A stretch of DNA of 32,000 bases from Flavobacteriaceae bacterium (GCA_965224465.1 OZ245049.1:3780001-3812000); one strand, 5' to 3'; positions 6,426 to 31,993 are shown, counted from the first letter of the stretch. Made by a program: numbers and translations. Notes: generated by a model from the sequence alone, not told the origin.

Positions 6426-6431
6426 AAAACA

Positions 6432-7700: not shown

Positions 7701-7701
7701 T

Positions 7702-8043: not shown

Positions 8044-8111
8044 TGTCTTTTTACAGGTAAAAAACCTAATAAAACCAGGCTGTTCATGTATATTTTTCGT
8101 ATATTTAATGT

Positions 8112-9797: not shown

Positions 9798-9811
9798 ATC
9801 GAGGTTTTTTT
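9782..9811 (+). terminator. Hairpin plus T-run at the IS66 right end (overlaps the tnpC stop)
   Basis: AAACCTCGAT-caataa-ATCGAGGTTT followed by TTTT. The same hairpin is present in both IS66 remnants (10640s and 11390s, reverse strand). Confidence 0.5.
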
Positions 9812-9860
9812 ATGTATTTTTAATTCCTATACGTACTTCGTCGGACGGATACATCTATAT

Positions 9861-13273: not shown

Positions 13274-15046
13274 ATGGCGCTACAAAGCAACACAACTATA
13301 ATTATTAAGAGACAAGAATTTTCAAGTTTTCAAAGCCTTAACTTACATCAGGAAATTGATGCATCCCATTTGTTAACACTTACGTTTAGAATGGACACAC
13401 TTGAAGATCTAGAAGAAGAACTTGCAACCAACAGTAAGGAGTTTTTGGGGGAAACAATTTCCTTGCAAACGATTCCTGCAAATGGTTTTGAAGACCGTTA
13501 TGGCGAATTGACGTTTAAAGGTATTATTACCGAAATAAAAATCATAAAAGGGCATGAGGTAAGTGATGGTGATAAAGTAGTTATAGTGGCAAAAAGCCCC
13601 GATTTTTTAACAAATGATGGTCCGCATTTTGCGTCTTACAACGATGTTTCCCTCTCAGAAATTATTGATAGTTCGTTTGAAGGCTATGATACTTCAAAAT
13701 TAGAAGTAGACATACGCCCTCAAAACAACCCTAGTTTGCATTATTCGGTACAGCATAACGAAAGTGCTTTTACGTATGTAAGTAGACTTGCAGCACAATA
13801 CGGAGAGTGGTTCTATTACGATGGCGCGAAATTAGTATTTGGAATGCCTGGTACCGAAGACTTAGAACTCACCTATGGATTTGATTTAGTAGAGTATCAG
13901 ATACGTTTGATACCTCAATCCAACAATTACAAAATATTTGCAAATGATTATTTAACCGATGAGGTACAAGAAAAATCAACAAGCGAAACCAATGCCGGTT
14001 TAAGAGGTTTTGGAGGCTTTGTTTCTGAAAAATCAAATGCCATCTACAGAAAAGAAACAAAAATTTGGCACAATTTATACAGCAATACAGAAGTGCAACA
14101 GCGTTTAGATACAGCGGTGGAATTGCAGAAAAAAGCGATTGATGTAAAACAAGTAAAAGTACAGGGTGTTTGTGATAATCCAGGAGTAAAAATTGGGAGA
14201 GTAGTTGTAATAGAAGGCAATAGATACAGAATTATAGAGGTTACACATAGCAATAATGAAATTGGCGATTATACAAATAAATTTGAAGGAATTACCGCAG
14301 ATATAAACGCATATCCATACACCAACATAAACGCATTTCCAAAAAGCGAAACACAGGTAGCTACCGTAAAAGAAAATGCAGATCCCGATGGATTGGGGCG
14401 CATAAGAGTGCAATTTCCATGGCAAGTGGAGTATAGCGAGTTAACCCCATGGGTGCGCATTGTAACACCACATGGAGGAGCAAATAAAGGATTCCATTTT
14501 ATACCAGAAATTGAAGAAAAAGTATTGGTGGGCTTTGAAGGGGGGAATGCAGAACATCCTTATATATTGGGGAGTTTGTACACGGGAAATGCCAAACCCG
14601 AAGCGTTTAAGACAGCAAATAACGATATAAAAGCGATAAAAACACGTAGTGGACATATTATTGAGTTTAATGATAGTGAAAATAAAGAAACAATTACTAT
14701 TAGGGATAAGAATAGCAACATGATACAGTTTAATACCAACGATAGCTCTATCCTTATTTCTGCTCCAGAAAAACTTACAATCATGTCTAAAGACCTAGAT
14801 ATAATGGTAAAAGAAAATTTTACTATTACAGTTGGAAAAGATAAAAAAGAGCAAATTTCAGGTGCTTATAAGTTGTCTGCTACTAACATTATAGAAATAG
14901 CTTCAGAAGCAATAAAAAGCAAAGCTGAAGAGATTTTAAATCAAGCAGATAAAGACATTACCATAACAAGTGTTAACGGGAATATAACTAAGCAGGCTGA
15001 AAAAAAAATAAATAATAACAGTGGTCAGCAAACGAACCTTTTTTAA
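13274..15046 (+). CDS. vgrG: T6SS spike protein VgrG/TssI
   Basis: 590 aa. gp27-like N-terminal half, and a gp5 OB-fold signature 'DPDGLGRIRVQFPWQ...TPWVRIVTPHGGANKGFHFIPEIEEKVLVGFEGGNAEHPYILGSLY'. C-terminal beta-helix-like repeats follow. Confidence 0.9.
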   Translation: MALQSNTTIIIKRQEFSSFQSLNLHQEIDASHLLTLTFRMDTLEDLEEELATNSKEFLGETISLQTIPANGFEDRYGELTFKGIITEIKIIKGHEVSDGDKVVIVAKSPDFLTNDGPHFASYNDVSLSEIIDSSFEGYDTSKLEVDIRPQNNPSLHYSVQHNESAFTYVSRLAAQYGEWFYYDGAKLVFGMPGTEDLELTYGFDLVEYQIRLIPQSNNYKIFANDYLTDEVQEKSTSETNAGLRGFGGFVSEKSNAIYRKETKIWHNLYSNTEVQQRLDTAVELQKKAIDVKQVKVQGVCDNPGVKIGRVVVIEGNRYRIIEVTHSNNEIGDYTNKFEGITADINAYPYTNINAFPKSETQVATVKENADPDGLGRIRVQFPWQVEYSELTPWVRIVTPHGGANKGFHFIPEIEEKVLVGFEGGNAEHPYILGSLYTGNAKPEAFKTANNDIKAIKTRSGHIIEFNDSENKETITIRDKNSNMIQFNTNDSSILISAPEKLTIMSKDLDIMVKENFTITVGKDKKEQISGAYKLSATNIIEIASEAIKSKAEEILNQADKDITITSVNGNITKQAEKKINNNSGQQTNLF

Positions 15047-15055: not shown

Positions 15056-15208
15056 ATGGCAAAGAAAAATCAAATACTTAAAATATCTAAAGGTACGATA
15101 CGCCTTTTAGCAAAAAAAGACGTGACTTTAAAAGCAAATAATATTCATTGTTCAGCAGGTGAAAATGTGAACGAAACAGCTAAACAAGGCGTGTTTTTTG
15201 GAAATTAA
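15056..15208 (+). CDS. Small ORF (50 aa) with VgrG-C-terminus-like beta-strand repeats
   Basis: The ATG lies 10 nt after the vgrG stop. MAKKNQILKISKGTIRLLAKKDVTLKANNIHCSAGENVNETAKQGVFFGN resembles the 'ITITSVNGNITKQAEKK' style of the VgrG tail. It is below the ORF-track length cut-off. Confidence 0.35.
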   Translation: MAKKNQILKISKGTIRLLAKKDVTLKANNIHCSAGENVNETAKQGVFFGN

Positions 15209-15216
15209 AAAGGGGA

Positions 15217-16036: not shown

Positions 16037-16522
16037 ATGAGCGATGTTGCTATAGTGTGTCAAGGTGCTATGTGTAAATGTAAATATGGTTTTACACCAG
16101 ACACCTTTAAAATTGTAAGCACCCATAAAGAATACGTAAACGAGTCTAATGGCTCATCTAAAATGATTGCGACTACCTTGGATATTGGGCAACCTTTCCA
16201 AGCCAAAACTTTTGGGCAATGTAAATTACAACCTTCATCAAGTGGGTATTTACCATGCGTACCCGCCATAACACAATGGCAAGATTTTTATAAAAAAGTT
16301 ACGATAAGTAACAATGGTAAAATTTTAACAGAAGATAGCAAAGCAATATGTGCTATTGCAGGTAGCCCATGTGTTGAGTTTACTTGGCACGGGCAAATTG
16401 GTGCGCCAAGTCAATCACAAGCAGCAGAAGCAGACAATCAGGTGCATAGTCAGATAAACCCGTTAGCGAGTCCTAAAGGGGCAAAAGAAGAACCTGTTAA
16501 TCATATATTAACCATTAATTAA
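16037..16522 (+). CDS. DUF4280 (PAAR-like) domain protein
   Basis: 'VCQGAMCKCKYGFTPDTFKIV...ATTLDIGQPFQAKTFGQCKL....LPCVPAITQWQ...ILTEDSKAICAIAGSPCVEFTWHGQ' follows the DUF4280 pattern C.C..G..P..L.V...D...FG.C...PC.P....W...L...S...C..G.....GQ. A ~40-aa polar C-terminal tail follows. Confidence 0.75.
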   Translation: MSDVAIVCQGAMCKCKYGFTPDTFKIVSTHKEYVNESNGSSKMIATTLDIGQPFQAKTFGQCKLQPSSSGYLPCVPAITQWQDFYKKVTISNNGKILTEDSKAICAIAGSPCVEFTWHGQIGAPSQSQAAEADNQVHSQINPLASPKGAKEEPVNHILTIN

Positions 16523-16530
16523 AAAAGACG

Positions 16531-19428
16531 ATGCCTCACGATAAAAAGAAGAAGCCTTACGATTATTCAAAAGATGATGTAAAAAGGTCTAAAGGTAGCT
16601 ATCAAAAAGTAATTGTAGCCGACCAAAAAAAATTAGATACTGGTATTGTAAAGAAAAGAATTTATAAAAGGTATTATGTTTTTGAAATACAATTAAATCA
16701 AAAAGTTAACTTTAAATTAAAGGTTCTCAATGCAAAAAACATAAATGAAACTGGGCAAAATGTGTACTGGATATTTCAAGACTCAACGAATTTCGAAAAA
16801 CATGTATACGGATCTTTTGAAAGCCATGAAAATAAAAACGACTTTCAGACCCATTTAAATACTCTTAATATAGGTACTAAGTATGAAGTAGCATTTTTTG
16901 AAGATGGGAGTGAAAATCCAGATTATATACACTATACAGAGGAAAGTACAAAATGTATAGGGAAAAATTATCTACCTACAAACCCTTTTAAAAGTAATAG
17001 AAAAAAAAGAGAAGGAATACTTTTGGGTAGCGTATCATATACGCCAACAGTATTAGGAAAAGGATTATGGATAGAAGGTATTAATTATACTCCTGAGTTT
17101 GAAAGTCAAGGAGCATTTATGATTGCTGTTAGCGAACCACAGATACTTAATTTATATGTAGAAAAAAGATATCGCCCAGAAAAAATTGTTAGAGAATCAG
17201 GGGTTATTACAGATCAGGAAGATACCACTCATGTAACCCAAGAACTTACCTATGGTAATATGTTAGATATACATATAAACTTACACAATATATTAGATGA
17301 TTATACCTGTACTTTAGGCGTTTTTTATGAAGATACATCTATGAGTGAAGGTTACTCAAGAATTATAGATTTAGATCAGAATAAGAAAGACAATCCTTCT
17401 TTAGATTATAACCGAAAATTTATTGAAGAGTTAGTAGTTGATTTACGTTGGGCAGGTAGATCAAAACATAAAGAAGGAAAAGATGATGAAGATTCTCTGC
17501 AAGACTATAAAATGGTGCTTACGTTTAGACCAACAAATGCAGATGAAAAATCACATGCCAAAGACTACCCAATTATAACAAGAGAAATTACGTTTACCGT
17601 AAATTACAAAGGGAATTTTAGTTATGACGAGCATGAACCTAGTTATATAACGCAAGTAGTAAAAGTACATAAACCACCATTGGTAAGTCAATCGTTTGAG
17701 GACTGTAGATACACAAGTTTATCCCTTAAGATAGGAAATCAGCCCAAATTTAATCTTTTGTATGAAGAAAAAGATGGGTCATTATCAGGTAAGTGTACTG
17801 ACAATAAAACAGCCGTTTATCAATTGGTAGCTGGCAATGTAGGTAATGTTATTCCTGTACTCATTGAAATTGATGCAGAGGTTTCAACATGTGAAGATAG
17901 CACGCTAAAGCATCAAAACAATACCTTTAATATCGAAGATATTATTCCATTAGAATTTAAAAAAGGAAAAGGAGTTTGGAAATATATAAAAAACAAGAAT
18001 ATTTTTCCTGAAGTGCAACCCTTTACTTTGGTTGGGAAAATTACAGAAAGCAGCTTGGCGTTTAATGCAGCATACCCCTATCAAGCATGGAGTGAAAGTA
18101 CATTCTTATTTAAATACCTCACTTGGCAGATAGATCCAATAGAACTATTTATTGGTGTGCGTAGCTGTAGATATGTACGTACTCCCTCTATTTATATATA
18201 TCCTGATATGGTATGGTCATTACACTTTAATTATGGTATAAAAGAAAACGAGATCCTTTATTTTCAAAATAAAAAAGTAAACTTAATATTTGGCTATGCT
18301 AACTATATGGATTATATAAAAGATGCTGTCTTATGGATTTATGAACCGTTTAAAGAATATTTTGACACGTTTTTCCCAAATGGAAACCAAGATAAATTAG
18401 AAGAACTTGTTAAAGCACTTGGGCTAGATGATGCTAAAACCTATGCCAGATTAGGCTTACATGTAAGATATGATGGTGATAAAGAAATAGATTATACAGC
18501 CATAACAAGATATAAAGCTTATATGTACTATCTTATTTTTCAGTTTGTTATGGTTTCTCTTGCCGTAGATTTATTTATATTATATCTAACCAGAGGAAAA
18601 GCATTAGAGGGCAAAGCACTAAAATTACAGAGAACGTTAAAAAGGGTAAAGAAGAGAATAAAGTCTATAGAAGAAGCAACAGAACTGGAATTTGCAATAT
18701 TATACCCAAAAATCAATGCCAATGCAGGGATCTACCGAATATCACAAGAAAATGGTGAAATTGCAACCATTATAGAAGCGACCATACAAGCAAAACCATT
18801 AATAGGCTTAAATGTGAAGTGTAAATTTGATCTTAATGAGAAAAAAGGGGTAAGTTTAATTGATAAAAAAGGGAAAGAACATAAAATAAAAAAGTTTAAA
18901 TGGTTAGAAAAACTAGTAGCAACTTTTGAATTAGATGGTCAAATAAATACAGATATTAATATAAAGTACAATACCCATTCACAAAAATTTACTACCAATG
19001 AAAATGGTGTAAAGCAAGAGTTGAAAAACGGGTATATACTTAAGAATAAAGGATCTGTAGTTGGGTATGCTGAATTGAAAGGTAAAATTGTTCTACCTGT
19101 TTCTTCTAGGGCAAACGCAATTTCCTTACATATTACGGCTAGTGCTGATACTGATTTTGGATTTAGTGAAGCTAAGGTTTTTGGAATTGATACTATTGGG
19201 CCCTTTTTTAGAATAGAATATACAATCGAAGAGTTTTCTTTAAATGTTAATATAGATGTAGTAGCTAAAAAAGGAAGAAAAACTCTTTATGATATTAAAA
19301 AAGCATTTTTAGAATTTTTTGGAATTGATACTAATGAGGAAGGTTTTGAAAAAATGTTTTTTGAAGAAAAAAAAATATTACTCCCAAAATTGTATTTATT
19401 TGATCCTTTAAGACAATTTAAAAAATAA
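16531..19428 (+). CDS. Large uncharacterised protein (965 aa), candidate T6SS cargo effector
   Basis: Lies 8 nt downstream of the PAAR-like gene and 6 nt upstream of the lipoprotein array. No signal peptide. One strongly hydrophobic segment 'AYMYYLIFQFVMVSLAVDLFILYLT' (about nt 18517..18591) is followed by a basic stretch. No catalytic motif recognised. Confidence 0.8.
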   Translation: MPHDKKKKPYDYSKDDVKRSKGSYQKVIVADQKKLDTGIVKKRIYKRYYVFEIQLNQKVNFKLKVLNAKNINETGQNVYWIFQDSTNFEKHVYGSFESHENKNDFQTHLNTLNIGTKYEVAFFEDGSENPDYIHYTEESTKCIGKNYLPTNPFKSNRKKREGILLGSVSYTPTVLGKGLWIEGINYTPEFESQGAFMIAVSEPQILNLYVEKRYRPEKIVRESGVITDQEDTTHVTQELTYGNMLDIHINLHNILDDYTCTLGVFYEDTSMSEGYSRIIDLDQNKKDNPSLDYNRKFIEELVVDLRWAGRSKHKEGKDDEDSLQDYKMVLTFRPTNADEKSHAKDYPIITREITFTVNYKGNFSYDEHEPSYITQVVKVHKPPLVSQSFEDCRYTSLSLKIGNQPKFNLLYEEKDGSLSGKCTDNKTAVYQLVAGNVGNVIPVLIEIDAEVSTCEDSTLKHQNNTFNIEDIIPLEFKKGKGVWKYIKNKNIFPEVQPFTLVGKITESSLAFNAAYPYQAWSESTFLFKYLTWQIDPIELFIGVRSCRYVRTPSIYIYPDMVWSLHFNYGIKENEILYFQNKKVNLIFGYANYMDYIKDAVLWIYEPFKEYFDTFFPNGNQDKLEELVKALGLDDAKTYARLGLHVRYDGDKEIDYTAITRYKAYMYYLIFQFVMVSLAVDLFILYLTRGKALEGKALKLQRTLKRVKKRIKSIEEATELEFAILYPKINANAGIYRISQENGEIATIIEATIQAKPLIGLNVKCKFDLNEKKGVSLIDKKGKEHKIKKFKWLEKLVATFELDGQINTDINIKYNTHSQKFTTNENGVKQELKNGYILKNKGSVVGYAELKGKIVLPVSSRANAISLHITASADTDFGFSEAKVFGIDTIGPFFRIEYTIEEFSLNVNIDVVAKKGRKTLYDIKKAFLEFFGIDTNEEGFEKMFFEEKKILLPKLYLFDPLRQFKK

Positions 19429-19434
19429 AAATTT

Positions 19435-20508
19435 ATGAATTTTAAAATCTATTATCTCCTATTTGCTTTTTCATTTATAGGATGCTCACAAAATAAAAAA
19501 ACTGATACTTATACGATGAAATTAGATACTTATATAAATGACATATTAAAAAATGTTAAACATTCTATTGATGAAGAAGTGTTTTTTTTATCAATAAGAG
19601 CGTCAAAATCAACTTATAATATTCGGGTTAATGATATGTCGATTAAACAATCTTTTGATTATGAAGATGATAAAAAACAAAGGGTTTCACTAAACTTTCA
19701 TAATCTCAATAAAACATTTAAAAATTCAGGTAAACAAAGAATCTCTTTTAGTATTTATCCATTTAATAGAGACAGATTTAAAGCAAACGATAGAATAAAA
19801 ATTACTATTGAGAAATCAGATAAAACAGGTAATCTTACAGATTATATTGAATATAAGCCGAAAATGATTGACGATGCAGAAACTCCTGAGTTTACTGACA
19901 CAGAAGTGCATGAAGGAAGCTTTGAGTTTGAAGCAAAATTACCTTATAAAAAACAAATAGACTGGTCTGAGTCTAAAAGTTTAAAAGATCAAGAAAATAC
20001 AGAGCAAGAAGTACTAGAGGCGTATAAAGAAGTGATGAGATTATATGCAGAAGGAGATTTAGACAGTTTGTTAGAACTCTACAAACCTATTTTTCAAGAT
20101 GAGGCGCAGTCTGTATATGCAACTAAAGAAAAAGATTATAGGCTATCTTATGAATTAAACTGGGAACGTTTACATCCGTTTTTTTATAAATCAAAACCTA
20201 GATTAGATGCTGATTATGAATTAAAATTTTATGCAGACGGTAGATTGGTTACTTTAGAAAAGAAAAAAAACACGGCTTTAAGTTGTAACAAAAGTGCATT
20301 ATCCATCATATACGATAAAGATTTTGATAAATTCCCTGACAACTTGTTTGTAAGTGCCAAAGATTTAATAATGTTTGGAGATGGTACGATTCCGAAAAAA
20401 GAAATGGAAATATACTTATTCTTCTATAAACCAAAAGGATCAAATACTTTAAAATTAGCTACAGATATTTTTAGAAAAGAAAAATTATTAAATCCAATAG
20501 AAGATTAA
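19435..20508 (+). CDS. Array lipoprotein L1 (type A; putative immunity)
   Basis: 357 aa. MNFKIYYLLFAFSFIGCSQNKK is a lipobox. The conserved core 'GSFEFEAKLPYKKQIDWSES...EVLEAYKEVMRLYAEGDLDSLLELYKPIF' is shared with L2-L10. Confidence 0.85.
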   Translation: MNFKIYYLLFAFSFIGCSQNKKTDTYTMKLDTYINDILKNVKHSIDEEVFFLSIRASKSTYNIRVNDMSIKQSFDYEDDKKQRVSLNFHNLNKTFKNSGKQRISFSIYPFNRDRFKANDRIKITIEKSDKTGNLTDYIEYKPKMIDDAETPEFTDTEVHEGSFEFEAKLPYKKQIDWSESKSLKDQENTEQEVLEAYKEVMRLYAEGDLDSLLELYKPIFQDEAQSVYATKEKDYRLSYELNWERLHPFFYKSKPRLDADYELKFYADGRLVTLEKKKNTALSCNKSALSIIYDKDFDKFPDNLFVSAKDLIMFGDGTIPKKEMEIYLFFYKPKGSNTLKLATDIFRKEKLLNPIED

Positions 20509-21611
20509 TGAGATTAGGTAAACACATATTTCAGCATATAAAGATCGTTTTTGTGATGAGTCTTGTTTTTTGTACCGCATGTTCACAAACAAAAAATCAA
20601 AAAAAACTAGATAAAATGGCGACCAAAATAGACACTTATATAAACACCATATTAAAAAACGTAAAACACTATCCAGAAGAACCTGTTTATTTTATAGGTA
20701 GCACTGGTTCATATAAATACTACGAAATTAAGATAAATGATGTAATAGTCGTGCAAAACTATTTTTTAAAAGGTGAGGATACTTCTTCTCTTAGGAGATT
20801 TAGTAGTATCAACAATGCTCTTAATAAACAGGGCAAGCAAAAATTATCGTTTGCCCTCTTTCCTGAGGATGGTAAAACGTTTAAGTCCAATGATTGGGTT
20901 GAATTATCGATAGAAACTATGGATCAATTTAGAGAAACAAAAGAAATTTTCACGTTTGAACCTCCTATGAAATCTGATGGAGAAACCTCGGAGCATATTG
21001 GTTTAGAAAGCTATTCGGGAAGCTTTGAGTTTGAAGGAAAATTACCTTATAAAAAACAAATAGATTGGTCTGAATCTAATAGCTTAAAAGATCAAAAAAA
21101 CATAGAGCAAGAAGTGCTAGAGGCGTATAAAGAAGTGATGAGATTATATGCGGAAGGAGATTTAGACAGTTTGTTAGAACTCTACAAGCCTATTTTTCTA
21201 GACGAAGCACAGTCTGTATATGCTACTAAAGAAAAAGATTATAGGCTATCTTATGAATTAAACTGGGAACGTTTACATCCATTTTTTTATAAATCAAAAC
21301 CTACATTAGATGCGGATTATGAATTAAAATTTTATGCAGACGGTAGATTGGTTACTTTAGAAAAGAAAAAAAACACGGCTTTAAGTTATAACAAAAGTGC
21401 ATTATCCATCATATACGATAAAGATTTTGATAAATTCCCTGATGGCCTTACTAGAGCAAATAGGGATGTAGTAATGTTTGAAGATGTTGCCACTCCTAAA
21501 AAAGAAATGGAATTATACTTATTCTTCTATAAACCAAAAGGATCAAATACCTTAAAATTAGCTACAGATGTTTTTAGAGAGGAAGAATTATTAAATCCAA
21601 TAGAAGATTAA
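20508..21611 (+). CDS. Array lipoprotein L2 (type B)
   Basis: 367 aa. MRLGKHIFQHIKIVFVMSLVFCTACSQTK. The start ATG overlaps the L1 TAA by 1 nt. Confidence 0.85.
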   Translation: MRLGKHIFQHIKIVFVMSLVFCTACSQTKNQKKLDKMATKIDTYINTILKNVKHYPEEPVYFIGSTGSYKYYEIKINDVIVVQNYFLKGEDTSSLRRFSSINNALNKQGKQKLSFALFPEDGKTFKSNDWVELSIETMDQFRETKEIFTFEPPMKSDGETSEHIGLESYSGSFEFEGKLPYKKQIDWSESNSLKDQKNIEQEVLEAYKEVMRLYAEGDLDSLLELYKPIFLDEAQSVYATKEKDYRLSYELNWERLHPFFYKSKPTLDADYELKFYADGRLVTLEKKKNTALSYNKSALSIIYDKDFDKFPDGLTRANRDVVMFEDVATPKKEMELYLFFYKPKGSNTLKLATDVFREEELLNPIED

Positions 21612-22711
21612 TGAGATTAGGTAAACACATATTTCAGCATATAAAGATCGTTTTTGTGATGAGTCTTGTTTTTTGCACCGCTTGTGGGCAAACAAAAAAT
21701 CAAAAAAAACTAGATGAAATGGCTATCAAAATAGACACTTATATAAATACCATATTAAAAAATGTAAAACACTACCCAGAAGAACCTGTTTATTTAGTAG
21801 ATCTCTCTTCTCCATCAACATACTATGAAATTAAAGTAAATAATATAATAGTTGAGGAAAGTTATACAAATAATGAAGGGTCTTTTCCTATTAAATTATT
21901 TAGCAGTGTAAATGATGCTATCAATAAAGAAGGCAAGCAAAAAGTAACGTTTACTCTATTTCCTGCAGAAGATAAAACATTTAAATCTAATAGTTGGGTT
22001 GAAATATCTATAGAAACTATAAATCAATTTAGAGAAACAAAAGAAATTTTCACTTATGAACCTCCTATGAAATCTGATGGAGAAACCTCTGAACATATTG
22101 GTTTAGAAAGTTATTCGGGAAGCTTTGAGTTTGAAGCAAAATTACCTTATAAAAAACAAATAGATTGGTCTGAGTCTAAAAGCCTAAAAGAACAAAAAAA
22201 CATAGAACAAGAAGTGCTAGAGGCGTATAAAGAAGTAATGAGATTATATGCAGAAGGAGATATAGACAGTTTATTAGAACTCTATAAACCTATTTTTCAA
22301 GATGAGGCACAGTCTGTATATACTACTAAAGACAAAAAAGGTTGGGTAAATTACCGATTGAAATGGGAACGTTTACATCCATTTTTTTATAAATCAAAAC
22401 CTATATTAGATACTGATTATGAATTAAAATTTTATGCAGAGGGTAGATTAGTTACTTTAGAAAAGAAAAAAGATACTGCTTTAAGTTATAACAAAAGTGC
22501 ATTATCCATCATATACGATAAAGATTTTGATAAATTTACTGACAACTTATTTGTAAGTGCCAAAGATTTAATAATGTTTGGAGATGGTACGATTCCTAAA
22601 AAAGAAATGGAATTATACTTATTCTTTTATAAACCAAAAGGATCAAATACTTTAAAATTAGCTACAGATATTTTTAGAGAGGAAAAATTATTAAATCCAA
22701 TAGAAGATTAA
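21611..22711 (+). CDS. Array lipoprotein L3 (type B)
   Basis: 366 aa, TAATG overlap with L2. Carries the variant modules 'TTKDKKGWVNYRLKW' and 'FTDNLFVSAKDLIMFGDGTIP'. Confidence 0.85.
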   Translation: MRLGKHIFQHIKIVFVMSLVFCTACGQTKNQKKLDEMAIKIDTYINTILKNVKHYPEEPVYLVDLSSPSTYYEIKVNNIIVEESYTNNEGSFPIKLFSSVNDAINKEGKQKVTFTLFPAEDKTFKSNSWVEISIETINQFRETKEIFTYEPPMKSDGETSEHIGLESYSGSFEFEAKLPYKKQIDWSESKSLKEQKNIEQEVLEAYKEVMRLYAEGDIDSLLELYKPIFQDEAQSVYTTKDKKGWVNYRLKWERLHPFFYKSKPILDTDYELKFYAEGRLVTLEKKKDTALSYNKSALSIIYDKDFDKFTDNLFVSAKDLIMFGDGTIPKKEMELYLFFYKPKGSNTLKLATDIFREEKLLNPIED

Positions 22712-23811
22712 TGAGATTAGGTAAATACATATTTCAGCATATAAAGATCATTTTTTTGATGAGTCTTGTTTTTTGCACCGCATGTTCACAAACAAAAAAT
22801 CAAAAAAAACTAGATGAAATGGCTATCAAAATCGACACTTATATAAATACCATATTAAAAAACGTAAAACACTATCCAGAAGAACCTGTTTATTTTATAA
22901 GTAGCCCAGGTCCATATAAATACTACGAAATTAAAATAAATGATATTATAGTTATACAAAATTATTTTTCAAAAGGTGATGCCCCTTCTTATAGGAATTT
23001 TAGTAGTATCAACAATGCTCTTAATAAAAAGGGCAAGCAAAATTTAACGTTTACTCTATTCCCTTCAAAAGATAAAACGTTTCAGTCCAATGATTGGGTT
23101 GAGTTATCGATAGAAACTATGGATCAATTTAGAGAAAGAAAAGAAATTTTCACGTTTGAACCTCCTATGAAATCTGATGGAGAAACCTCGGAGCATATTG
23201 GTTTAGAAAGCTATTCGGGAAGCTTTGAGTTTGAAGCAAAATTACCTTATAAAAAACAAATAGATTGGTCTGAGTCTAAAAGTTTAAAAGATCAAAAAAA
23301 TACAGAGCAAGAAGTGCTAGAGGCGTATAAAGAAGTAATGAGATTATATGCAGAAGGAGATTTAGACAGTTTGTTAGAACTCTACAAACCTATTTTTCAA
23401 GATGAGGCGCAGTCTGTATATGCAACTAAAGAAAAAAAGAGTAGGCTAAGTTACCGATTAAACTGGGAACGTTTACATCCATTTTTTTATAAATCAAAAC
23501 CTACATTAGATGCTGATTATGAATTAAAATTTTATGCAGAGGGTAGATTGGTTACTTTAGAAAAGAAAAAAAACACGGCTTTAAGTTGTAACAAAAGTGC
23601 ATTATCCATCATATACGATAAAGATTTTGATAAATTCCCTGATGGCCTTACTAGAGCAAATAGGGATGTAGTAATGTTTGAAGATGTTGCCACTCCTAAA
23701 AAAGAAATGGAATTATACTTATTCTTCTATAAACCAAAAGGATCAAATACCTTAAAATTAGCTACAGATGTTTTTAGAGAGGAAGAATTATTAAATCCAA
23801 TAGAAGATTAA
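22711..23811 (+). CDS. Array lipoprotein L4 (type B)
   Basis: 366 aa, TAATG overlap. Carries the modules 'ATKEKKSRLSYRLNW' and 'FPDGLTRANRDVVMFEDVATP'. Same protein as L9 except three residues in the last 14 aa (DVFREEE vs DIFRKEK). Confidence 0.85.
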   Translation: MRLGKYIFQHIKIIFLMSLVFCTACSQTKNQKKLDEMAIKIDTYINTILKNVKHYPEEPVYFISSPGPYKYYEIKINDIIVIQNYFSKGDAPSYRNFSSINNALNKKGKQNLTFTLFPSKDKTFQSNDWVELSIETMDQFRERKEIFTFEPPMKSDGETSEHIGLESYSGSFEFEAKLPYKKQIDWSESKSLKDQKNTEQEVLEAYKEVMRLYAEGDLDSLLELYKPIFQDEAQSVYATKEKKSRLSYRLNWERLHPFFYKSKPTLDADYELKFYAEGRLVTLEKKKNTALSCNKSALSIIYDKDFDKFPDGLTRANRDVVMFEDVATPKKEMELYLFFYKPKGSNTLKLATDVFREEELLNPIED

Positions 23812-24878
23812 TGAGATTAGGTAAACACATATTTCAGTATATAAAGATCATTTTTGTGATGAGTCTTGTTTTTTGCACCGCTTGTGGGCAAACAAAAAAT
23901 CAAAAAAAACTAGATGAAATGGCTGTCAAAATAGACACTTATGTGAATACCATATTAAAAAATGTAAAGTATTACCCAGAAGAACCTGTTTATTTAGTGG
24001 ATCTCTCTTCTTCATCAGGATATTACGAAATTAAAATAAATGATGTAATAGTCGAGCAAAACTATTTCTCAAAAGGTGAGGACCCTTCTTCTTTTAGGAG
24101 ATTTAGTAGTATCAACAATGCTCTTAATAAACAGGGCAAGCAAAAAATATCGTTTGCCCTGTTTTCTGAGGAATATAAAACGTTTCAGTCCAATGATTGG
24201 CTTGATGTATCGATAGAAACGATGGATCAATTTAGAGAAACAAAAGAAATTTTCACGTTTGAGCCTCCTATGAAATCTGATGGAGAAACCTCGGAGCATA
24301 TTGGTTTAGAAAGCTATTCGGGAAGCTTTGAGTTTGAAGCAAAATTACCTTATAAAAAACAAATAGATTGGTCTGAGTCTAAAAGTTTAAAAGATCAAAA
24401 AAATACAGAGCAAGAAGTGTTAGAGGCGTATAAAGAAGTGATGAGATTATATGCAGAAGGAGATTTAGACAGTTTGTTAGAACTCTACAAACCTATTTTT
24501 CAAGATGAGGCGCAGTCTGTATATGCAACTAAAGAAAAAGATTATAGGGTCTCTTATGAATTAAACTGGGAACGTTTACATCCATTTTTTTATAAATCAA
24601 AACCTAGATTAGATGCGGATTATGAATTAAAATTTTATGCAGACGGTAGATTGGTTACTTTAGATAAGAAAAAAAACACGGCTTTAAGTTGTAACAAAAG
24701 TGCATTATCCATCATATACGATAAAGATTTTGATAAAATGCCTGATGGTACAAGGGTAAATATAAAATATTTAAAAATGTTTGAGGATGGTGTGGTGCCT
24801 AAAATGGAAATGGAAATATACTTATTCTTTTATAAACCAAAAGGATCAAATACTTTAAAATTAGCTACAGATATTTAA
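23811..24878 (+). CDS. Array lipoprotein L5 (type B, lacks the last ~11 conserved residues)
   Basis: 355 aa, ending '...LKLATDI*' where the other members continue 'FR.E.LLNPIED'. The 3' end is replaced by the effector-3' relic. Confidence 0.8.
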   Translation: MRLGKHIFQYIKIIFVMSLVFCTACGQTKNQKKLDEMAVKIDTYVNTILKNVKYYPEEPVYLVDLSSSSGYYEIKINDVIVEQNYFSKGEDPSSFRRFSSINNALNKQGKQKISFALFSEEYKTFQSNDWLDVSIETMDQFRETKEIFTFEPPMKSDGETSEHIGLESYSGSFEFEAKLPYKKQIDWSESKSLKDQKNTEQEVLEAYKEVMRLYAEGDLDSLLELYKPIFQDEAQSVYATKEKDYRVSYELNWERLHPFFYKSKPRLDADYELKFYADGRLVTLDKKKNTALSCNKSALSIIYDKDFDKMPDGTRVNIKYLKMFEDGVVPKMEMEIYLFFYKPKGSNTLKLATDI

Positions 24879-24940
24879 AGAAAAAAAAATTTTACTACCG
24901 AAAATTTATTTATTTGATCCATTAAGAAATTTTAAAACAA
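24877..24940 (+). pseudogene. Relic of the 3' end of a second (variant) copy of the 965-aa effector gene
   Basis: About 80% nt identity by hand alignment to 19363..19425. It translates as KEKKILLPKIYLFDPLRNFK, versus EEKKILLPKLYLFDPLRQFKK* at the end of ORF 16531..19428. It has the same spacing to the following lipoprotein start. Confidence 0.75.
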
Positions 24941-24946
24941 TTGAAA

Positions 24947-26023
24947 ATGAAAATTATTAAATTTTGTAACCGATTACTATTGATATTTACATTAGTGGCT
25001 TGCTCACAAACAAAAAGTAAGCTAAAAATAAAAAACGATCTTAAAATTATGAAAATAGATAGCTATATTTCTAACCTTATAAAAAATGTGGAGCACTTTG
25101 GTGAGGAAAAAACATTTAATCTCGATGTGTGGGTAACAAAATCGAACTATAAAATACAAATAAATGATTTGCCAGTAGAAGAATGTTTTGACTATGAAAA
25201 TAATCAACATATTTTCCGAAGTTATCAAAGTGTTAATAGTGTTCTTAAAATAGGTAGTAAACAAAAAGTGTCTTTTAAAATATGGCCACTAGATAGAAAG
25301 ACCTTTCTAAGTACTGACAAGATTAAAATAACAATAGAGGAAATAGATCAAACAGGTGAATTAAGTGATTTTTTTATTTATAATCCTCCAATGTTAGATG
25401 ATGGGGAAACCCCAGAATATGTTGGCAAAGAAAGTTATTCGGGTAGTTTTGAATTTGAAGCAACTTTACCTTATAAAAAAGAAGTTGATTGGTTTAAATC
25501 CGAAGATTTAAGGAATTCACCAAATATTCAACAGGAAGTACTAGTAGCATACAAAGAAATAGGGCGGTTGTATGAAAGTGGGGATTTTGAAACTCTGTTA
25601 CAACTATATGATCCCATATTTAAAACTGAGGCACAATCCACTTTTGCTACTAAAGAAAGATTAGACTATTTAAATGTTCCTGACAGGATTTACCCTTTTT
25701 TATATAAATCGAAAGTTGTATTAGACCCCAATTATGAAATAAAATTTTATGCTGACGGAACATTAGTAGCTTTGAAAACGAAAACTTCTGAACGGAATTA
25801 TTCTAAATCACCATTAACGATTAGATATGATAAAGATTTTGATCTTTTGCCAGAGAGTGCAAATGTAAATTCTAAAGAATTAAAACTTAATCTCAGTGGT
25901 ACGATTCCTAAAAAAGAAATGGAATTATACTTATTCTTCTATAAACCAAAAGGATCAAATACCTTAAAATTAGCTACAGATGTTTTTAGAGAGGAAGAAT
26001 TATTAAATCCAATAGAAGATTAA
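24947..26023 (+). CDS. Array lipoprotein L6 (type A, divergent)
   Basis: ATG at 24947 (the ORF track starts at TTG 24941). MKIIKFCNRLLLIFTLVACSQTK is a lipobox. It diverges from type B through most of its length, but the last ~110 nt match the L4 3' end with no differences seen. Confidence 0.85.
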   Translation: MKIIKFCNRLLLIFTLVACSQTKSKLKIKNDLKIMKIDSYISNLIKNVEHFGEEKTFNLDVWVTKSNYKIQINDLPVEECFDYENNQHIFRSYQSVNSVLKIGSKQKVSFKIWPLDRKTFLSTDKIKITIEEIDQTGELSDFFIYNPPMLDDGETPEYVGKESYSGSFEFEATLPYKKEVDWFKSEDLRNSPNIQQEVLVAYKEIGRLYESGDFETLLQLYDPIFKTEAQSTFATKERLDYLNVPDRIYPFLYKSKVVLDPNYEIKFYADGTLVALKTKTSERNYSKSPLTIRYDKDFDLLPESANVNSKELKLNLSGTIPKKEMELYLFFYKPKGSNTLKLATDVFREEELLNPIED

Positions 26024-27120
26024 TGAGATTAGGTAAATACATATTTCAGCATATAAAGATCGTTTTTGTGATGAGTCTTGTTTTTTGCACCGCTTGTTCA
26101 CAAACAAAAAATCAAAAAAAACTAGATGAAATGGCTATTAAAATAGACACTTATATAAATACCATATTAAAAAATGTAAAACACTACCCAGAAGAACCTG
26201 TTTATTTAGTAGACCTCTCTTCTTCATCAGGATATTACGAAATTAAAATAAATGATGTTATAATTGATCAACATTATTTTTCAAAAGATTACCCTACCAC
26301 AATCAGAACTTATAGCAGTATCAACAATGCTCTTAATAAAGAAGGCAAGCAAAAAGTAACGTTTACTCTATTTCCTGCAGAAGATAAAACATTTAAATCT
26401 AATAGTTGGGTTGAAATATCTATAGAAACTATAAATCAATTTAGAGAAACAAAAGAAATTTTCACTTATGAACCTCCTATGAAATCTGATGGAGAAACCT
26501 CTGAACATATTGGTTTAGAAAGTTATTCGGGAAGCTTTGAGTTTGAAGCAAAATTACCTTATAAAAAACAAATAGATTGGTCTGAGTCTAAAAGCCTAAA
26601 AGAACAAAAAAACATAGAACAAGAAGTGCTAGAGGCGTATAAAGAAGTAATGAGATTATATGCAGAAGGAGATATAGACAGTTTATTAGAACTCTATAAA
26701 CCTATTTTTCAAGATGAGGCACAGTCTGTATATACTACTAAAGACAAAAAAGGTTGGGTAAATTACCGATTGAAATGGGAACGTTTACATCCATTTTTTT
26801 ATAAATCAAAACCTATATTAGATACTGATTATGAATTAAAATTTTATGCAGAGGGTAGATTAGTTACTTTAGAAAAGAAAAAAGATACTGCTTTAAGTTA
26901 TAACAAAAGTGCATTATCCATCATATACGATAAAGATTTTGATAAATTTACTGACAACTTATTTGTAAGTGCCAAAGATTTAATAATGTTTGGAGATGGT
27001 ACGATTCCGAAAAAAGAAATGGAATTATACTTATTCTTTTATAAACCAAAAGGATCAAATACTTTAAAATTAGCAACGGATATTTTTAGAAAAGAAAAAT
27101 TATTAAACGGAGAGGATTAA
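26023..27120 (+). CDS. Array lipoprotein L7 (type B)
   Basis: 365 aa. It has a unique N-terminal patch 'IIDQHYFSKDYPTTIRTY'; from ~aa 105 it is identical to L3 except the C-terminal 'FRKEKLLNGED'. Confidence 0.85.
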   Translation: MRLGKYIFQHIKIVFVMSLVFCTACSQTKNQKKLDEMAIKIDTYINTILKNVKHYPEEPVYLVDLSSSSGYYEIKINDVIIDQHYFSKDYPTTIRTYSSINNALNKEGKQKVTFTLFPAEDKTFKSNSWVEISIETINQFRETKEIFTYEPPMKSDGETSEHIGLESYSGSFEFEAKLPYKKQIDWSESKSLKEQKNIEQEVLEAYKEVMRLYAEGDIDSLLELYKPIFQDEAQSVYTTKDKKGWVNYRLKWERLHPFFYKSKPILDTDYELKFYAEGRLVTLEKKKDTALSYNKSALSIIYDKDFDKFTDNLFVSAKDLIMFGDGTIPKKEMELYLFFYKPKGSNTLKLATDIFRKEKLLNGED

Positions 27121-28220: not shown

Positions 28221-29320
28221 TGAGATTAGGTAAATACATATTTCAGCATATAAAGATCATTTTTTTGATGAGTCTTGTTTTTTGCACCGCATGTTCACAA
28301 ACAAAAAATCAAAAAAAACTAGATGAAATGGCTATCAAAATCGACACTTATATAAATACCATATTAAAAAACGTAAAACACTATCCAGAAGAACCTGTTT
28401 ATTTTATAAGTAGCCCAGGTCCATATAAATACTACGAAATTAAAATAAATGATATTATAGTTATACAAAATTATTTTTCAAAAGGTGATGCCCCTTCTTA
28501 TAGGAATTTTAGTAGTATCAACAATGCTCTTAATAAAAAGGGCAAGCAAAATTTAACGTTTACTCTATTCCCTTCAAAAGATAAAACGTTTCAGTCCAAT
28601 GATTGGGTTGAGTTATCGATAGAAACTATGGATCAATTTAGAGAAAGAAAAGAAATTTTCACGTTTGAACCTCCTATGAAATCTGATGGAGAAACCTCGG
28701 AGCATATTGGTTTAGAAAGCTATTCGGGAAGCTTTGAGTTTGAAGCAAAATTACCTTATAAAAAACAAATAGATTGGTCTGAGTCTAAAAGTTTAAAAGA
28801 TCAAAAAAATACAGAGCAAGAAGTGCTAGAGGCGTATAAAGAAGTAATGAGATTATATGCAGAAGGAGATTTAGACAGTTTGTTAGAACTCTACAAACCT
28901 ATTTTTCAAGATGAGGCGCAGTCTGTATATGCAACTAAAGAAAAAAAGAGTAGGCTAAGTTACCGATTAAACTGGGAACGTTTACATCCATTTTTTTATA
29001 AATCAAAACCTACATTAGATGCTGATTATGAATTAAAATTTTATGCAGAGGGTAGATTGGTTACTTTAGAAAAGAAAAAAAACACGGCTTTAAGTTGTAA
29101 CAAAAGTGCATTATCCATCATATACGATAAAGATTTTGATAAATTCCCTGATGGCCTTACTAGAGCAAATAGGGATGTAGTAATGTTTGAAGATGTTGCC
29201 ACTCCTAAAAAAGAAATGGAATTATACTTATTCTTCTATAAACCAAAAGGATCAAATACTTTAAAATTAGCTACAGATATTTTTAGAAAAGAAAAATTAT
29301 TAAATCCAATAGAAGATTAA
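28220..29320 (+). CDS. Array lipoprotein L9 (type B; near-duplicate of L4)
   Basis: 366 aa. No nucleotide differences from L4 seen over ~1.03 kb from the start (offset 5509 bp). Confidence 0.85.
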   Translation: MRLGKYIFQHIKIIFLMSLVFCTACSQTKNQKKLDEMAIKIDTYINTILKNVKHYPEEPVYFISSPGPYKYYEIKINDIIVIQNYFSKGDAPSYRNFSSINNALNKKGKQNLTFTLFPSKDKTFQSNDWVELSIETMDQFRERKEIFTFEPPMKSDGETSEHIGLESYSGSFEFEAKLPYKKQIDWSESKSLKDQKNTEQEVLEAYKEVMRLYAEGDLDSLLELYKPIFQDEAQSVYATKEKKSRLSYRLNWERLHPFFYKSKPTLDADYELKFYAEGRLVTLEKKKNTALSCNKSALSIIYDKDFDKFPDGLTRANRDVVMFEDVATPKKEMELYLFFYKPKGSNTLKLATDIFRKEKLLNPIED

Positions 29321-29770
29321 TGAGATTAGGTAAACACATATTTCAGCATATAAAGATCATTTTTGTGATGAGTCTTGTTTTTTGCACCGCTTGTGGGCAA
29401 ACAAAAAGTAAGCTAAAAATAAAAAACGATCTTAAAATTATGAAAATAGATAGCTATATTTCTAACCTTATAAAAAATGTGGAGCACTTTGGTGAGGAAA
29501 AAACATTTAATCTCGATGTGTGGGTAACAAAATCGAACTATAAAATACAAATAAATGATTTGCCAGTAGAAGAATGTTTTGACTATGAAAATAATCAACA
29601 TATTTTCCGAAGTTATCAAAGTGTTAATAGTGTTCTTAAAATAGGTAGTAAACAAAAAGTGTCTTTTAAAATATGGCCACTAGATAGAAAGACCTTTCTA
29701 AGTACTGACAAGATTAAAATAACAATAGAGGAAATAGATCAAACAGGTGAATTAAGTGGTTTTTTTATTT
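29320..29770 (+). pseudogene. Array lipoprotein L10, 5' part (type-B leader fused to a type-A body), interrupted by IS4 copy B
   Basis: MRLGKHIFQHIKIIFVMSLVFCTACGQTK|SKLKIKNDLKIMKIDSY..., with the crossover inside 'caaacaaaaa'. The body is near-identical to L6. The frame resumes at 31350. Confidence 0.8.
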
Positions 29771-31344
29771 ACTCAAGTTTCGCACTTAGATAGATTTACG
29801 CAACCTCTTGGCAATTAAGTTTATGGGTATTTACTAGAAATCCAAAATTCTCAATATTCACTATTATTTTACGTGTAATTAACTCAATATCAATAGATTC
29901 AATCATCTTTTCCAAAACATCAATCACCAAACTGACAACTGCTAATATCCTGATGTTTAGCTTATTCTCTATATAATCTTGTTTTAAATCTTTAAACAAC
30001 CCTCCTATTGTTTCGTAGGCTTCCATTCTATATCGAATACTGGTGAGTAAATATTGAACCATTATAATGCTTATTTGTGCGATTTGAATATCAAAATTAG
30101 TGGACTGACATTTTCCAAGACCAAACAACTGCTTAGCTTCTTTAAAAAACACTTCTATGGACCATCTGATACTGTATATTTCAATAGCCTTTACGAATTT
30201 CAGTGTTGTGTCAGTTGATATTAACGTATGCCATTTGCCATTCTTTCCACGTTTTGAAATAAATACAGCAACCTTAAGACCGTCAATTTCAGTTATGTAA
30301 TGATGGTAGTAATAATTGAATTTACGGCATCGTTTTGGTTTTATTTTCTGTTTTTTGAGTTGTGACAAGGTTTTAATCTTTGATTTAACTTCAATTTTAC
30401 TGTTGTATTTATACATTCCTATAATATGAGTTAAGCTACTAATGTCCCGTAACTTTCTAAGTAATTTAACACTTGTAAACCAACTGTCTATTAAGATGTA
30501 ATCTACAGGTACCTTACGTTTTATAAGCCTTGAGAACATTTGCACCAACAAGTCTGTTTTCTTTTTATTGAGTTCCTGATACCTTTTTGCTGCAATTGTT
30601 TTACTACATCTCGGCGTTTTCTTTTGAAGTCTACGTTGCTTTGCTGTTAGTCCGTATTTTAATTTTGATGTTTTACTTTCACGGTGTAAACTAAAATCAA
30701 CAGGAATAAATACACTTCCGTTCCAGTAACCAGCAACAAGTAGTTTATAACCTAGGTAATACGTTTTTGATACATGGTTGTATATTTTTGAAACACCTTC
30801 AATTGTCTTTCCTGTTTTAGAAAGATCAGTATCATCAAAGATCAAGCATCTTGTAGCATCTTTAGATGGAGTAAAGAACTCTTCTTTTAATAGATATTGC
30901 TTCACAAACTGAGCTAGAAAAACCCTCCAATTTATCTTTTGATTTGCTAGGATTCGATAGTATGAATCTTTACCAGACTGACCTAATCCTTTGTCTTTAT
31001 TGCTTGTAAGTCCATGAATAGAGTCAAATCCAATAATAGGTAAAATTAAAAGTGTAGAAATCAAATTACCGAATGAAATCCCCGATTTCTTACACCAACT
31101 AAACTTGTTTTTAATTTTATTGAATCCTAAAATATTTAGATGTGCTTGTAGGTATTCTGAACTAAGCCAAATCTTATTAAATTTTCCTTTTATCTCCTGT
31201 GTTTTTGTGATATCTTCGTGTTCTAGCATGTTTTGTACTTTCTTGTTCGTACTTAAAAGTACAATAAAACCAGGGGATTACCTTGGTTTTCATGCTATTT
31301 ATTTTCACTTAAACACCTGTAAATGATGGGTGCGAAACTTGAGT
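29771..31344 (-). mobile_element. IS4-family insertion sequence, copy B (1574 bp)
   Basis: Same terminal inverted repeats (29771..29785 and 31330..31344). TSD TATTT (29766..29770 and 31345..31349). The uninterrupted target can be read in L6 at 25381..25395 (tttttatttataatc). Confidence 0.9.
29796..31229 (-). CDS. IS4-family DDE transposase (copy B)
   Basis: 477 aa, differing from copy A at about 15 residues; same YREK motif. Confidence 0.85.
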   Translation of the reverse strand: MLEHEDITKTQEIKGKFNKIWLSSEYLQAHLNILGFNKIKNKFSWCKKSGISFGNLISTLLILPIIGFDSIHGLTSNKDKGLGQSGKDSYYRILANQKINWRVFLAQFVKQYLLKEEFFTPSKDATRCLIFDDTDLSKTGKTIEGVSKIYNHVSKTYYLGYKLLVAGYWNGSVFIPVDFSLHRESKTSKLKYGLTAKQRRLQKKTPRCSKTIAAKRYQELNKKKTDLLVQMFSRLIKRKVPVDYILIDSWFTSVKLLRKLRDISSLTHIIGMYKYNSKIEVKSKIKTLSQLKKQKIKPKRCRKFNYYYHHYITEIDGLKVAVFISKRGKNGKWHTLISTDTTLKFVKAIEIYSIRWSIEVFFKEAKQLFGLGKCQSTNFDIQIAQISIIMVQYLLTSIRYRMEAYETIGGLFKDLKQDYIENKLNIRILAVVSLVIDVLEKMIESIDIELITRKIIVNIENFGFLVNTHKLNCQEVA

Positions 31345-31349
31345 TATTT

Positions 31350-31993
31350 ATAATCCTCCAATGTTAGATGATGGGGAAACCCCAGAATATGTTGGCAAAG
31401 AAAGTTATTCGGGTAGTTTTGAATTTGAAGCAACTTTACCTTATAAAAAAGAAGTTGATTGGTTTAAATTCGAAGATTTAAGGAATTCACCAAATATTCA
31501 ACAGGAAGTACTAGTAGCATACAAAGAAATAGGGCGGTTGTATGAAAGTGGGGATTTTGAAACTCTGTTACAACTATATGATCCCATATTTAAAACTGAG
31601 GCACAATCCACTTTTGCTACTAAAGAAAGATTAGACTATTTAAATGTTCCTGACAGGATTCACCCTTTTTTATATAAATCGAAAGTTGTATTAGATCCTA
31701 ATTATGAAATAAAATTTTATGCTGACGGAACATTAGTAGCTTTGAAAACGAAAACTTCTGAACGGAATTATTCTAAATCACCATTAACGATTAGATATGA
31801 TAAAGATTTTGATCTTTTGCCAGAGAGTGCAAATGTAAATTCTAAAGAATTAAAACTTAATCTCAGTGGTACGATTCCGAAAAAAGAAATGGAATTATAC
31901 TTATTCTTCTATAAACCAAAAGGATCAAATACTTTAAAATTAGCTACAGATATTTTTAGAGAGGAAAAATTATTAAATCCAATAGAAGATTAA
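31350..31993 (+). pseudogene. Array lipoprotein L10, 3' part
   Basis: Codon T(29770)+AT(31350..31351) restores '...FFIYNPPMLDDGETPEY...' exactly as in L6. The frame is open to TAA at 31991..31993. Confidence 0.8.

Follow-up and report, generated by a model that had tools for sequence, protein, structure and literature searches.

A remnant of a putative effector 3′ end within the immunity gene array of a type VI secretion operon in a Flavobacteriaceae bacterium

A 64-nt segment buried in an array of immunity-like genes of a Flavobacteriaceae bacterium is a genuine remnant of the 3′ end of a putative effector gene, left as the recombination scar of an effector–immunity module that carried another allele. 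All positions refer to the whole stretch of 32,000 nt that was analyzed (GCA_965224465.1 OZ245049.1:3780001-3812000; G+C content of 30.6%), hereafter the window. From ~12 kb on, the window is a spike/effector operon of a Bacteroidota-type type VI secretion system (T6SS) from an Aquimarina-like member of the Flavobacteriaceae. In this operon, the gene for a 965-aa protein, the resident effector, is followed by ten tandem homologous lipoprotein genes of ~1.1 kb each, L1 to L10 (19435 to 31993), which are of an A or a B type. Labels with three digits (L001 to L012) denote other, related loci taken from species-representative genomes. The roles of effector and immunity protein are putative but well-founded inferences that follow from an operon grammar shared with Bacteroides fragilis modules and from the comparison of the effector model with known structures. 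The segment, referred to as the stub, matches the tail of the effector gene; L5, the immunity gene ahead of it, is truncated at the join; L6, the gene behind it, is the outlier of the array; and later duplications have extended the array further. The scar is genuine and statistically secure, and it constitutes a further example of the known replacement of effectors with retention of orphan immunity genes, in a T6SS family of the Flavobacteriaceae that is uncharacterized.

The initial annotation had noted that a segment of ~64 bp resembles the 3′ end of the 965-aa gene, and at the coordinates that it gave (24877-24940 versus 19363-19426), 53 of 64 bases are indeed identical. The best register (24874-24937 versus 19360-19423, the last 64 nt of the gene) has 55 identical bases. 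When the 64-mer is compared on both strands with 200 first-order Markov sequences of 32 kb, the best match is 37.2±1.2 with a maximum of 42, and the best match in the rest of the real window is 37. The stub occurs only once at ≤3 mismatches, and identity drops to about 40–65% on both of its flanks. Translated in frame, it reads (F)KEKKILLPKIYLFDPLRNFK(TIENENY, then stop), compared with (F)EEKKILLPKLYLFDPLRQFKK and a stop in the resident gene; a longer in-frame reading yields FKEKKILLPKIYLFDPLRNFK for the stub and FEEKKILLPKLYLFDPLRQFKK, followed by the stop, for the intact gene. The stub peptide retrieves the effector end by tblastn against the collected loci with 85.7% identity over 21 aa (E=7e-9), and the residues that are invariant in the family are intact.

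The specificity of this match is afforded by a short C-terminal motif. Every type-1 (close) effector allele ends in K-x-YLFDPLR, and in the window and eleven related loci, YLFDPLR is found once per locus in the five other type-1 loci, always at the end of a full-length effector, and otherwise at the stub only. A generic A/T-rich intergenic motif, which would have undone the original observation, is thus not the source of the similarity. Chance alone, or a non-coding function as a promoter, terminator, or RNA combined with a fortuitous likeness to an effector tail, would fit the A/T-rich composition of the stub and the low complexity of its 5′ end, a run of nine adenines. Such an origin is extremely improbable and is effectively refuted by the motif specificity and by the null comparison, in which the match lies about 13 standard deviations above the chance maximum. 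The stub has no Rfam family match and no predicted stable RNA fold (z=+1.3), and no Bacteroidetes −7 box (TAnnTTTG) is located in or near it; on these grounds a promoter, a terminator, and an RNA were each rejected. The stub is also non-coding at present. A translation of its frame contains no ATG, GTG, or TTG between the upstream in-frame stop and the coding stretch. Expression via a +1 frameshift from L5 was considered and judged unlikely, AUU-UAA-A being an implausible slippery site with nothing in its support.

The premature end of L5, another feature recognized at the outset, coincides with the start of the stub. The L5 product has 355 aa and is devoid of the nearly invariant tail FREEKLLNPIED. 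The other array genes have the ending ...LKLATD[IV]FR[KE]E[KE]LLNPIED, and their stop shares bases with the start codon of the following gene (TAATG), whereas L5 ends in ...LKLATDI and a stop, with 11 residues missing. At the join, GATATTT of L5 runs directly into AAAGAAAAAAAAATTTTACTACCG of the stub; the corresponding bases are GATATTTTTAGAAAAGAAAAATTATTAAATCC in a normal immunity gene tail and ATGTTTTTTGAAGAAAAAAAAATATTACTCCC in the effector gene. At this point, a patch of ~34 nt has 26 of 34 positions in common between immunity tail and effector tail; its score of 16.5, compared to a null maximum of 15.5 (768 tiles), is only marginally significant. The switch from L5 to the stub falls within this patch, placing the crossover inside it. 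Downstream, the Arg codon of the stub is followed by the ATG of L6 after 19 nt, and the corresponding interval between the effector and L1 is 21 nt, in line with the similar spacing first reported.

At the protein level, the immunity tail (DIFREEKLLNP) resembles the effector segment that precedes YLFDPLR (FFEEKKILLPK, 19353-19387), and similar pairs are observed in L001, L002, and L009. It may be speculated that the patch is a built-in landing site at which the 3′ ends of immunity and effector genes repeatedly recombine out of register, which would allow for the capture of cassettes without a recombinase, but this seems very doubtful. Within the same proposal, the invariant immunity tail itself could be an effector stub captured in the distant past.

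L6 differs from the remainder of the array in both of its domains. The immunity gene trees were made per domain, and those of the N-terminal and the C-terminal domains disagree. In the N-domain tree, the B-type genes cluster together, and the affinities of L1 and L6 lie with other genomes: L1 joins the immunity genes L001_1 and L002_2 of other Aquimarina genomes (54–62% identity), and L6 stands alone on a branch of this "A" clade, being ≤47% identical to any relative. L6 is therefore a divergent type-A member like L1, as proposed initially. The C-domains cluster by genome, which is indicative of concerted evolution, with the exception of L6 and its copy L10. The L1 C-domain is 87–89% identical to those of L2–L9, and that of L6/L10 branches outside the type-1 immunity genes as a whole (53–62% identity). 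L6 is the most divergent member of the array and its sole lineage outside the concerted evolution; its placement in both trees points to a history separate from that of L1–L5. Its last ~130 nt are B-like, with 97.8% identity to the L2/L3 junction. A search with the L6 protein retrieved 14 proteins from a collection of 5.8 billion, in which no relative is closer than P0021 (L002_2; 56–58% identity), a foreign protein that is not encoded beside its effector; the sampling of the genus is very thin. L1 is likely the cognate partner of the resident effector, and L6 is presumed to have been the partner of a lost effector allele, here termed eff′, which it would neutralize.

The right half of the array (26023-31993) is a mosaic that is ~100% identical to the left half (21611-26023), and its origin by very recent unequal crossing-over is implied by this sequence comparison. 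L7 equals L3 except for a unique hypervariable patch of ~100 nt (26223-26322), the two genes being 100% identical on either side and ~72% identical within it. L8 joins the 5′ half of L4 to the 3′ half of L3, L9 is L4, and L10 joins nt 1-88 of L5 to the body of L6 with a crossover in CAAACAAAAA, the insertion sequence (IS) having entered later. Given the near-complete identity of the mosaic, the older array would have been effector-L1-L2-L3-L4-L5-stub-L6. The initial annotation had divided the array into two historical modules, each with an A-type gene followed by B-type genes. An effector-end remnant fused to a truncated L5 and standing ahead of a deeply divergent, non-homogenized L6 fits an orphaned module; the second run of "A B B B" must be withdrawn as an old unit, for L7–L10 are pieced together, at essentially 100% identity, from L3, L4, L5 (5′ part), and L6. 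Assembly error is a caveat for any array with exact tandem repeats of 1 kb. More generally, the hypervariable region spans residues ~58–105 of the B-type lipoproteins. This part of the N-domain is a probable specificity determinant, and it looks as though it was diversified by patchy gene conversion or by selection.

We tentatively favor displacement as the origin of the scar. In this scheme, eff′ would be a second allele of the effector gene that once lay directly upstream of L6. DNA with the present effector and the L1–L5 block would have recombined into the locus, with the left crossover within a region of homology farther upstream (VgrG, adaptor, PAAR, or N-terminal half of the effector) and a right join that fused the 3′ ends of L5 and eff′ illegitimately, with the assistance of microhomology. 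The body of eff′ would thereby be lost and its tail would be shifted downstream along with L6, its cognate immunity gene, such that the cell would keep its protection against kin that carry eff′. Later unequal crossing-over inside the array would have copied L3, L4, and L6 into L7–L10. This direction of the event is favored because the related locus L008 shows that polarity directly and because L6 is terminal in the older array, as predicted by a model in which the oldest genes are found at the back.

L008 (Tenacibaculum sp. 1_MG-2023, 2329-9098) is a textbook case of C-terminal displacement, with the new module proximal and the old one distal. Residues 1–549 of its effector run into an unrelated C-terminal domain, followed by two immunity genes; straight after the stop of these, the old residues 548–969 (83% identical to P0011) appear, together with their own immunity gene. 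The insert at codon ~548 amounts to 2.9 kb and comprises the new C-terminal domain and the two immunity genes, and the displaced old C-terminal domain is now an open reading frame (ORF) of 383 aa. The right join is at a shared "IW" codon pair (immunity ...KELKIW and stop; effector ...DVIW, continuing as ASHLAL). P0018, an 856-aa chimeric effector from another Tenacibaculum assembly, is 98.6% identical to that of L008. In L001 (uncultured Aquimarina), a unit of ~190 nt is present twice downstream of a type-1 module (15060-15247 and 16430-16617). Each copy pairs the 3′ end of an immunity gene with ~17 terminal codons of a type-2 effector, GTMYLFEMFTLKNTYS, and the second copy has lost the body of the immunity gene. 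Both L008 and L001 carry the same kind of scar as the window.

Several observations weigh against displacement. The junction is equally explained by the import of a fragment with the stub and L6 or by the deletion of a second resident effector. The initial annotation called for an effector allele with the C-terminus of the stub ahead of an L6-like gene, and none was found in proteins or metagenome contigs: no allele ending in YLFDPLRNFK is present among the 18 effector homologues, and the back-translated YLFDPLRNFK and then the looser K-x-YLFDPLR-x-[FY]-[KN] gave zero matches in metagenome contigs. Since only six type-1 alleles are known in total, the absence of an RNFK allele says little and is an absence of data rather than a refutation. 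An L6 orthologue next to an effector was likewise found neither in the protein collection nor in metagenome contigs. The ten differences between the stub and the resident tail are distributed over codon positions as 3/1/6, and four of the eight changed codons are synonymous; as a sign of purifying selection, this third-position bias is suggestive but not significant at ten differences (p about 0.15). The stub and the resident tail also share KKILLPK and a short ending without the DKI extension, which fits an intragenomic origin as well. Finally, the toxicity of the 965-aa protein is a prediction, and the immunity function of the lipoproteins is inferred from their position and their lipoprotein signal peptides only.

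An orphan cassette may instead have been imported, which we regard as the less probable course. A donor fragment that starts within the eff′ 3′ end and carries L6 would have been joined to the distal end of an effector-L1–L5 array, with a homologous right crossover (in the conserved immunity 3′ end or the downstream flank) and an illegitimate left join to L5, such that an immunity gene is gained and no effector displaced. The anatomy of the junction would be the same as under displacement, L6 looks foreign in both domains, and the gain of an immunity gene is directly selectable; the acquisition of orphan immunity genes is documented in the Bacteroidales in the form of acquired interbacterial defense (AID) loci (PMC13402684). 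The B-like last ~130 nt of L6 are a possible homologous anchor for this import but are explained too by the later unequal crossover that made L7. The one related locus with a readable direction, L008, has its new module proximal and its old module distal, which corresponds to displacement.

Two tandem modules, effector-L1–L5 and eff′-L6, may also have once resided together, with eff′ removed when an internal deletion, mediated by the shared patch, brought the 3′ ends of L5 and eff′ together. The junction would again be the same. Tandem effector copies do occur in the family, as in L007, where an effector 3′ end, two immunity genes, and a transmembrane protein are followed by a second effector-like region, and microhomology deletions are demonstrable in the array itself, where L10 is the fusion of L5 nt 1-88 to L6. 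Such a deletion is nevertheless improbable: a prior event that placed the modules in tandem is still needed, no second VgrG, adaptor, or PAAR genes or remnants thereof are found between L5 and the stub, and the loss of a working toxin needs to be explained.

A purely internal duplication would derive both the stub and L6 from the resident module. In an unequal crossover involving the effector 3′ patch and the 3′ end of an immunity gene, the effector tail would have been copied with L1 and further genes, and the stub and L6 would be diverged copies. The array is highly prone to unequal crossing-over, the stub is located five gene-lengths (5514 nt) from the effector tail, and its nearest relative is the resident tail (55/64, versus 41–50/64 for other alleles), with the short ending in common. 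This closeness is due in part to the conservation of the tail, as the last 15 residues of the effector, 75% identical in close alleles, are an island of conservation behind the variable residues 800–950 (49–57%); a close tail thus implies no close toxin. The two ages are difficult to reconcile. L6 and L1 share 38% identity in the N-domain and 60% in the C-domain, which is a greater divergence than that between L1 and its orthologues of other species (54–62% and 71–73%, respectively), whereas the resident tail is closer to the stub than to the alleles of other species. L6 is too old and the stub too young for a single duplication event to yield both. In addition, L6 is outside the concerted evolution that homogenized L1 with L2–L9, all known recent duplicates in the array are 98–100% identical, and the stub retains the family-invariant residues. 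An internal origin is therefore unlikely.

The effector itself belongs to a family without a Pfam or NCBIfam model and without experimental characterization. Its 18 homologues in the protein collection are from Aquimarina or Tenacibaculum wherever the organism is named. The AlphaFold2 (AF2) model of the 965-aa protein (pLDDT 67.7) exhibits N-terminal beta-sandwiches, a helical/transmembrane segment (592–717), and long beta-hairpins (719–921). Foldseek matches this model to the N-terminal domain of BtaeB, a T6SS effector of B. fragilis (BtaeB-NTD, PDB 9jdh), with a probability of 1.00 and E=4e-4, although the TM-scores are low (0.14–0.28) owing to the medium confidence and multi-domain nature of the models. 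A profile of the effector recovers 141 clusters in a representative library, and many representatives match only its N-half (16-470/580) or only its C-half (376/541-945). The family is thus modular, a conserved N-half being combined with alternative C-terminal domains, and P0018 versus P0011 is another example. Short C-terminal-only representatives were not used as displaced domains, since a gap of Ns in the scaffold interrupts the one that was checked (P0038/L012). The lipoproteins also have no Pfam or NCBIfam match. The AF2 model of the immunity protein (pLDDT 67) has an N-terminal beta-sandwich followed by helices and finds no PDB fold match below E=0.04; the NCBI label "TraB/GumN family" on a relative, P0031, could not be reproduced.

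In Vibrio cholerae, orphan immunity arrays of T6SS clusters arise via sequential displacement and retain a single effector 3′ end, and homology-facilitated illegitimate recombination has been proposed as the mechanism (Kirchberger et al. 2017, PMC5361080). The likeness to this model, drawn in the initial annotation, holds for the scar, which is as expected of an orphaned module and recurs in two related loci (L008 and L001). In both systems, one intact effector and several immunity genes lie at the 3′ end of the cluster, the 3′ end of an older effector is retained within the array upstream of an orphan immunity gene, anchoring by homology on the left and an illegitimate join on the right are proposed, and the old immunity gene is kept, presumably against kin. 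The likeness does not extend to the array as a whole. The V. cholerae arrays are heterogeneous, whereas the present one consists of a single protein family, mostly of paralogues that arose by duplication and were homogenized by concerted evolution. Under the model, an orphan gene should be highly similar to the immunity gene of a complete pair in another strain; here, no population sample places the orphan in such a pair, and L6 finds 56–58% identity at best. The window also differs in having a Bacteroidota-type T6SS with a DUF4280 tip and in that the join truncates the preceding immunity gene.

Characteristic marks of the Rhs and contact-dependent inhibition (CDI) loci are Rhs/YD repeats and a VENN- or PxxxxDPxGL-type demarcation motif. 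None of these is present here, though the search for them was not exhaustive. The family nevertheless resembles those systems in that a conserved N-half is coupled to an exchangeable C-half, with L008 as the textbook case. Rhs and CDI loci undergo C-terminal displacement, which gives rise to orphan toxin-CT/immunity modules (Jackson 2009; Koskiniemi 2014; cited in PMC5361080). These orphan modules keep the C-terminal domain of the toxin, as does L008 with its 383-aa C-terminal fragment and immunity gene; in contrast, the stub in the window, with 64 nt or 21 codons, has no toxin domain and cannot be reactivated.

A parallel in operon layout is provided by the GA3 spike-complex modules of B. fragilis, in which Bte3/Bti3 are accompanied by the adaptor Ate3 and the DUF4280 tip Pte3, and by BtaeB/BtapC (PMC13402684; PDB 9jdh). 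The succession of VgrG, an adaptor-like gene, DUF4280, a large effector, and a lipoprotein immunity gene is the same, although here the adaptor is assigned by position only. The models may be comparable as well, with N-terminal beta-sandwiches and a C-terminal long-hairpin beta domain in the effector and an N-terminal beta-sandwich followed by helices in the immunity protein. However, there is no detectable sequence-level homology between Bte3/BtaeB and the proteins of the window, and neither ten-gene immunity arrays nor effector stubs have been described for the Bte3 loci. The AID loci, the orphan immunity islands of the Bacteroidales (PMC13402684), similarly accumulate immunity genes without effectors in Bacteroidota. 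They are located outside T6SS clusters and are associated with mobile elements, whereas the array in the window is inside the operon, directly behind the effector. No integrase or recombinase is encoded between 12 kb and 32 kb, and the only mobile element there is the IS in L10, an unrelated insertion.

This sequence-level evidence suggests that the module swapping known from Vibrio T6SS and from Rhs/CDI is also at work in the Bacteroidota-type T6SS of marine Flavobacteriaceae. The crossover points are preserved both in the window and in L008, in each case at a short microhomology, which supports the homology-facilitated illegitimate recombination that has only been hypothesized for Vibrio. 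The reading further predicts that L6 protects against an effector allele as yet unsampled. More unusual are the concertedly evolving array of ten genes from a single family, its hypervariable patch, and the preservation of the microhomology junctions themselves.

The features of the operon are compiled in Table 1. Related loci have the same gene order as the window, with 1–5 lipoprotein genes of the same superfamily downstream of the effector. The 271-aa gene has no Pfam or NCBIfam match; genes of 280–302 aa upstream of the DUF4280 gene in L001, L002, L003, and L008 are its equivalents, and by analogy with Ate3/BtapC (PMC13402684) its position suggests an adaptor. Within 150 nt upstream of any gene of the T6SS block, the sole −7 box is at 12064, 68 nt before hcp1, which suggests one long operon from Hcp through the immunity array.

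Table 1. Coordinates of the T6SS spike/effector operon, the immunity array, and the scar, counted from the first nucleotide of the window.
Feature	Position	Strand	Basis or remark
Two Hcp (TssD) genes	12132-12518, 12793-13188	+	Pfam TssD E=2e-52, 8e-47; start of spike/effector operon
VgrG spike gene	13274..15046	+	Pfam Phage_base_V, Phage_GPD
Adaptor-like gene, 271 aa	15217..16032	+	Conserved position, no family match
DUF4280 PAAR-like tip protein	16037..16522	+	Pfam DUF4280 E=4e-20
Resident effector (putative), 965 aa	16531..19428	+	Homologues, AF2 model, Foldseek
Resident effector 3′ tail, homologous to stub; encodes EEKKILLPKLYLFDPLRQFKK and stop	19360..19428	+	
L1, A-type lipoprotein immunity-like gene	19435..20508	+	Lipobox FIGCSQ seen in sequence
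L2, L3, L4, B-type immunity-like genes; stop/start overlaps (TAATG)	20508..23811	+	
L5, B-type, 11 codons short; stop TAA formed at stub junction	23811..24878	+	
Recombination junction, L5 3′ end / effector 3′ end	24873..24877	+	Inside ~34-nt similarity patch
Effector 3′ stub, final ~21 codons from a second effector allele, non-coding now	24874..24940	+	
L6, divergent A-type immunity-like gene; alternative TTG start 24941	24947..26023	+	
L7, L8, L9, recent mosaic copies of L3 and L4	26023..29320	+	
L10, chimera of L5 nt 1-88 and L6 body, split by IS	29320..31993	+	

Further remnants and gene-content differences are observed in the related loci. L009 and L011 are collinear and 92–93% identical and differ by exactly one A-type immunity gene after the effector (L009 12883-13971), with no stub; this is a clean gain or loss of one gene. 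An isolated immunity 3′ remnant is located in L009 at 17012-17170. In A. algicola, an eroded stub was suspected ahead of the orphan type-1 immunity gene (L003 15232-15382) but was rejected, its score being within the null distribution.

Several mobile elements accompany the operon. The IS that interrupts L10 is 1.57 kb in size and is present in two copies (29772-31343 and 4037-5626) that are ~95% identical, have the same orientation, and bracket the entire T6SS effector region. Both copies encode a 477-aa DDE transposase (DDE_5/DDE_Tnp_1) and are flanked by the 7-bp sequence TTATTTA, which in L10 is the target duplication. An IS66-family element at 7392-9853 comprises a TnpB_IS66 ORF and a 561-aa transposase, and an inverted partial copy of it (402 nt, 98.8% identity) lies ~1.5 kb downstream at 11334-11735. 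A truncated IstB-like ORF is found at 3122-3493. Upstream of the Hcp genes, a 204-aa ORF (6488-7102) harbors a Phage_lysozyme domain (E=2e-27) and may represent a further cargo of the T6SS or a relic of a phage.

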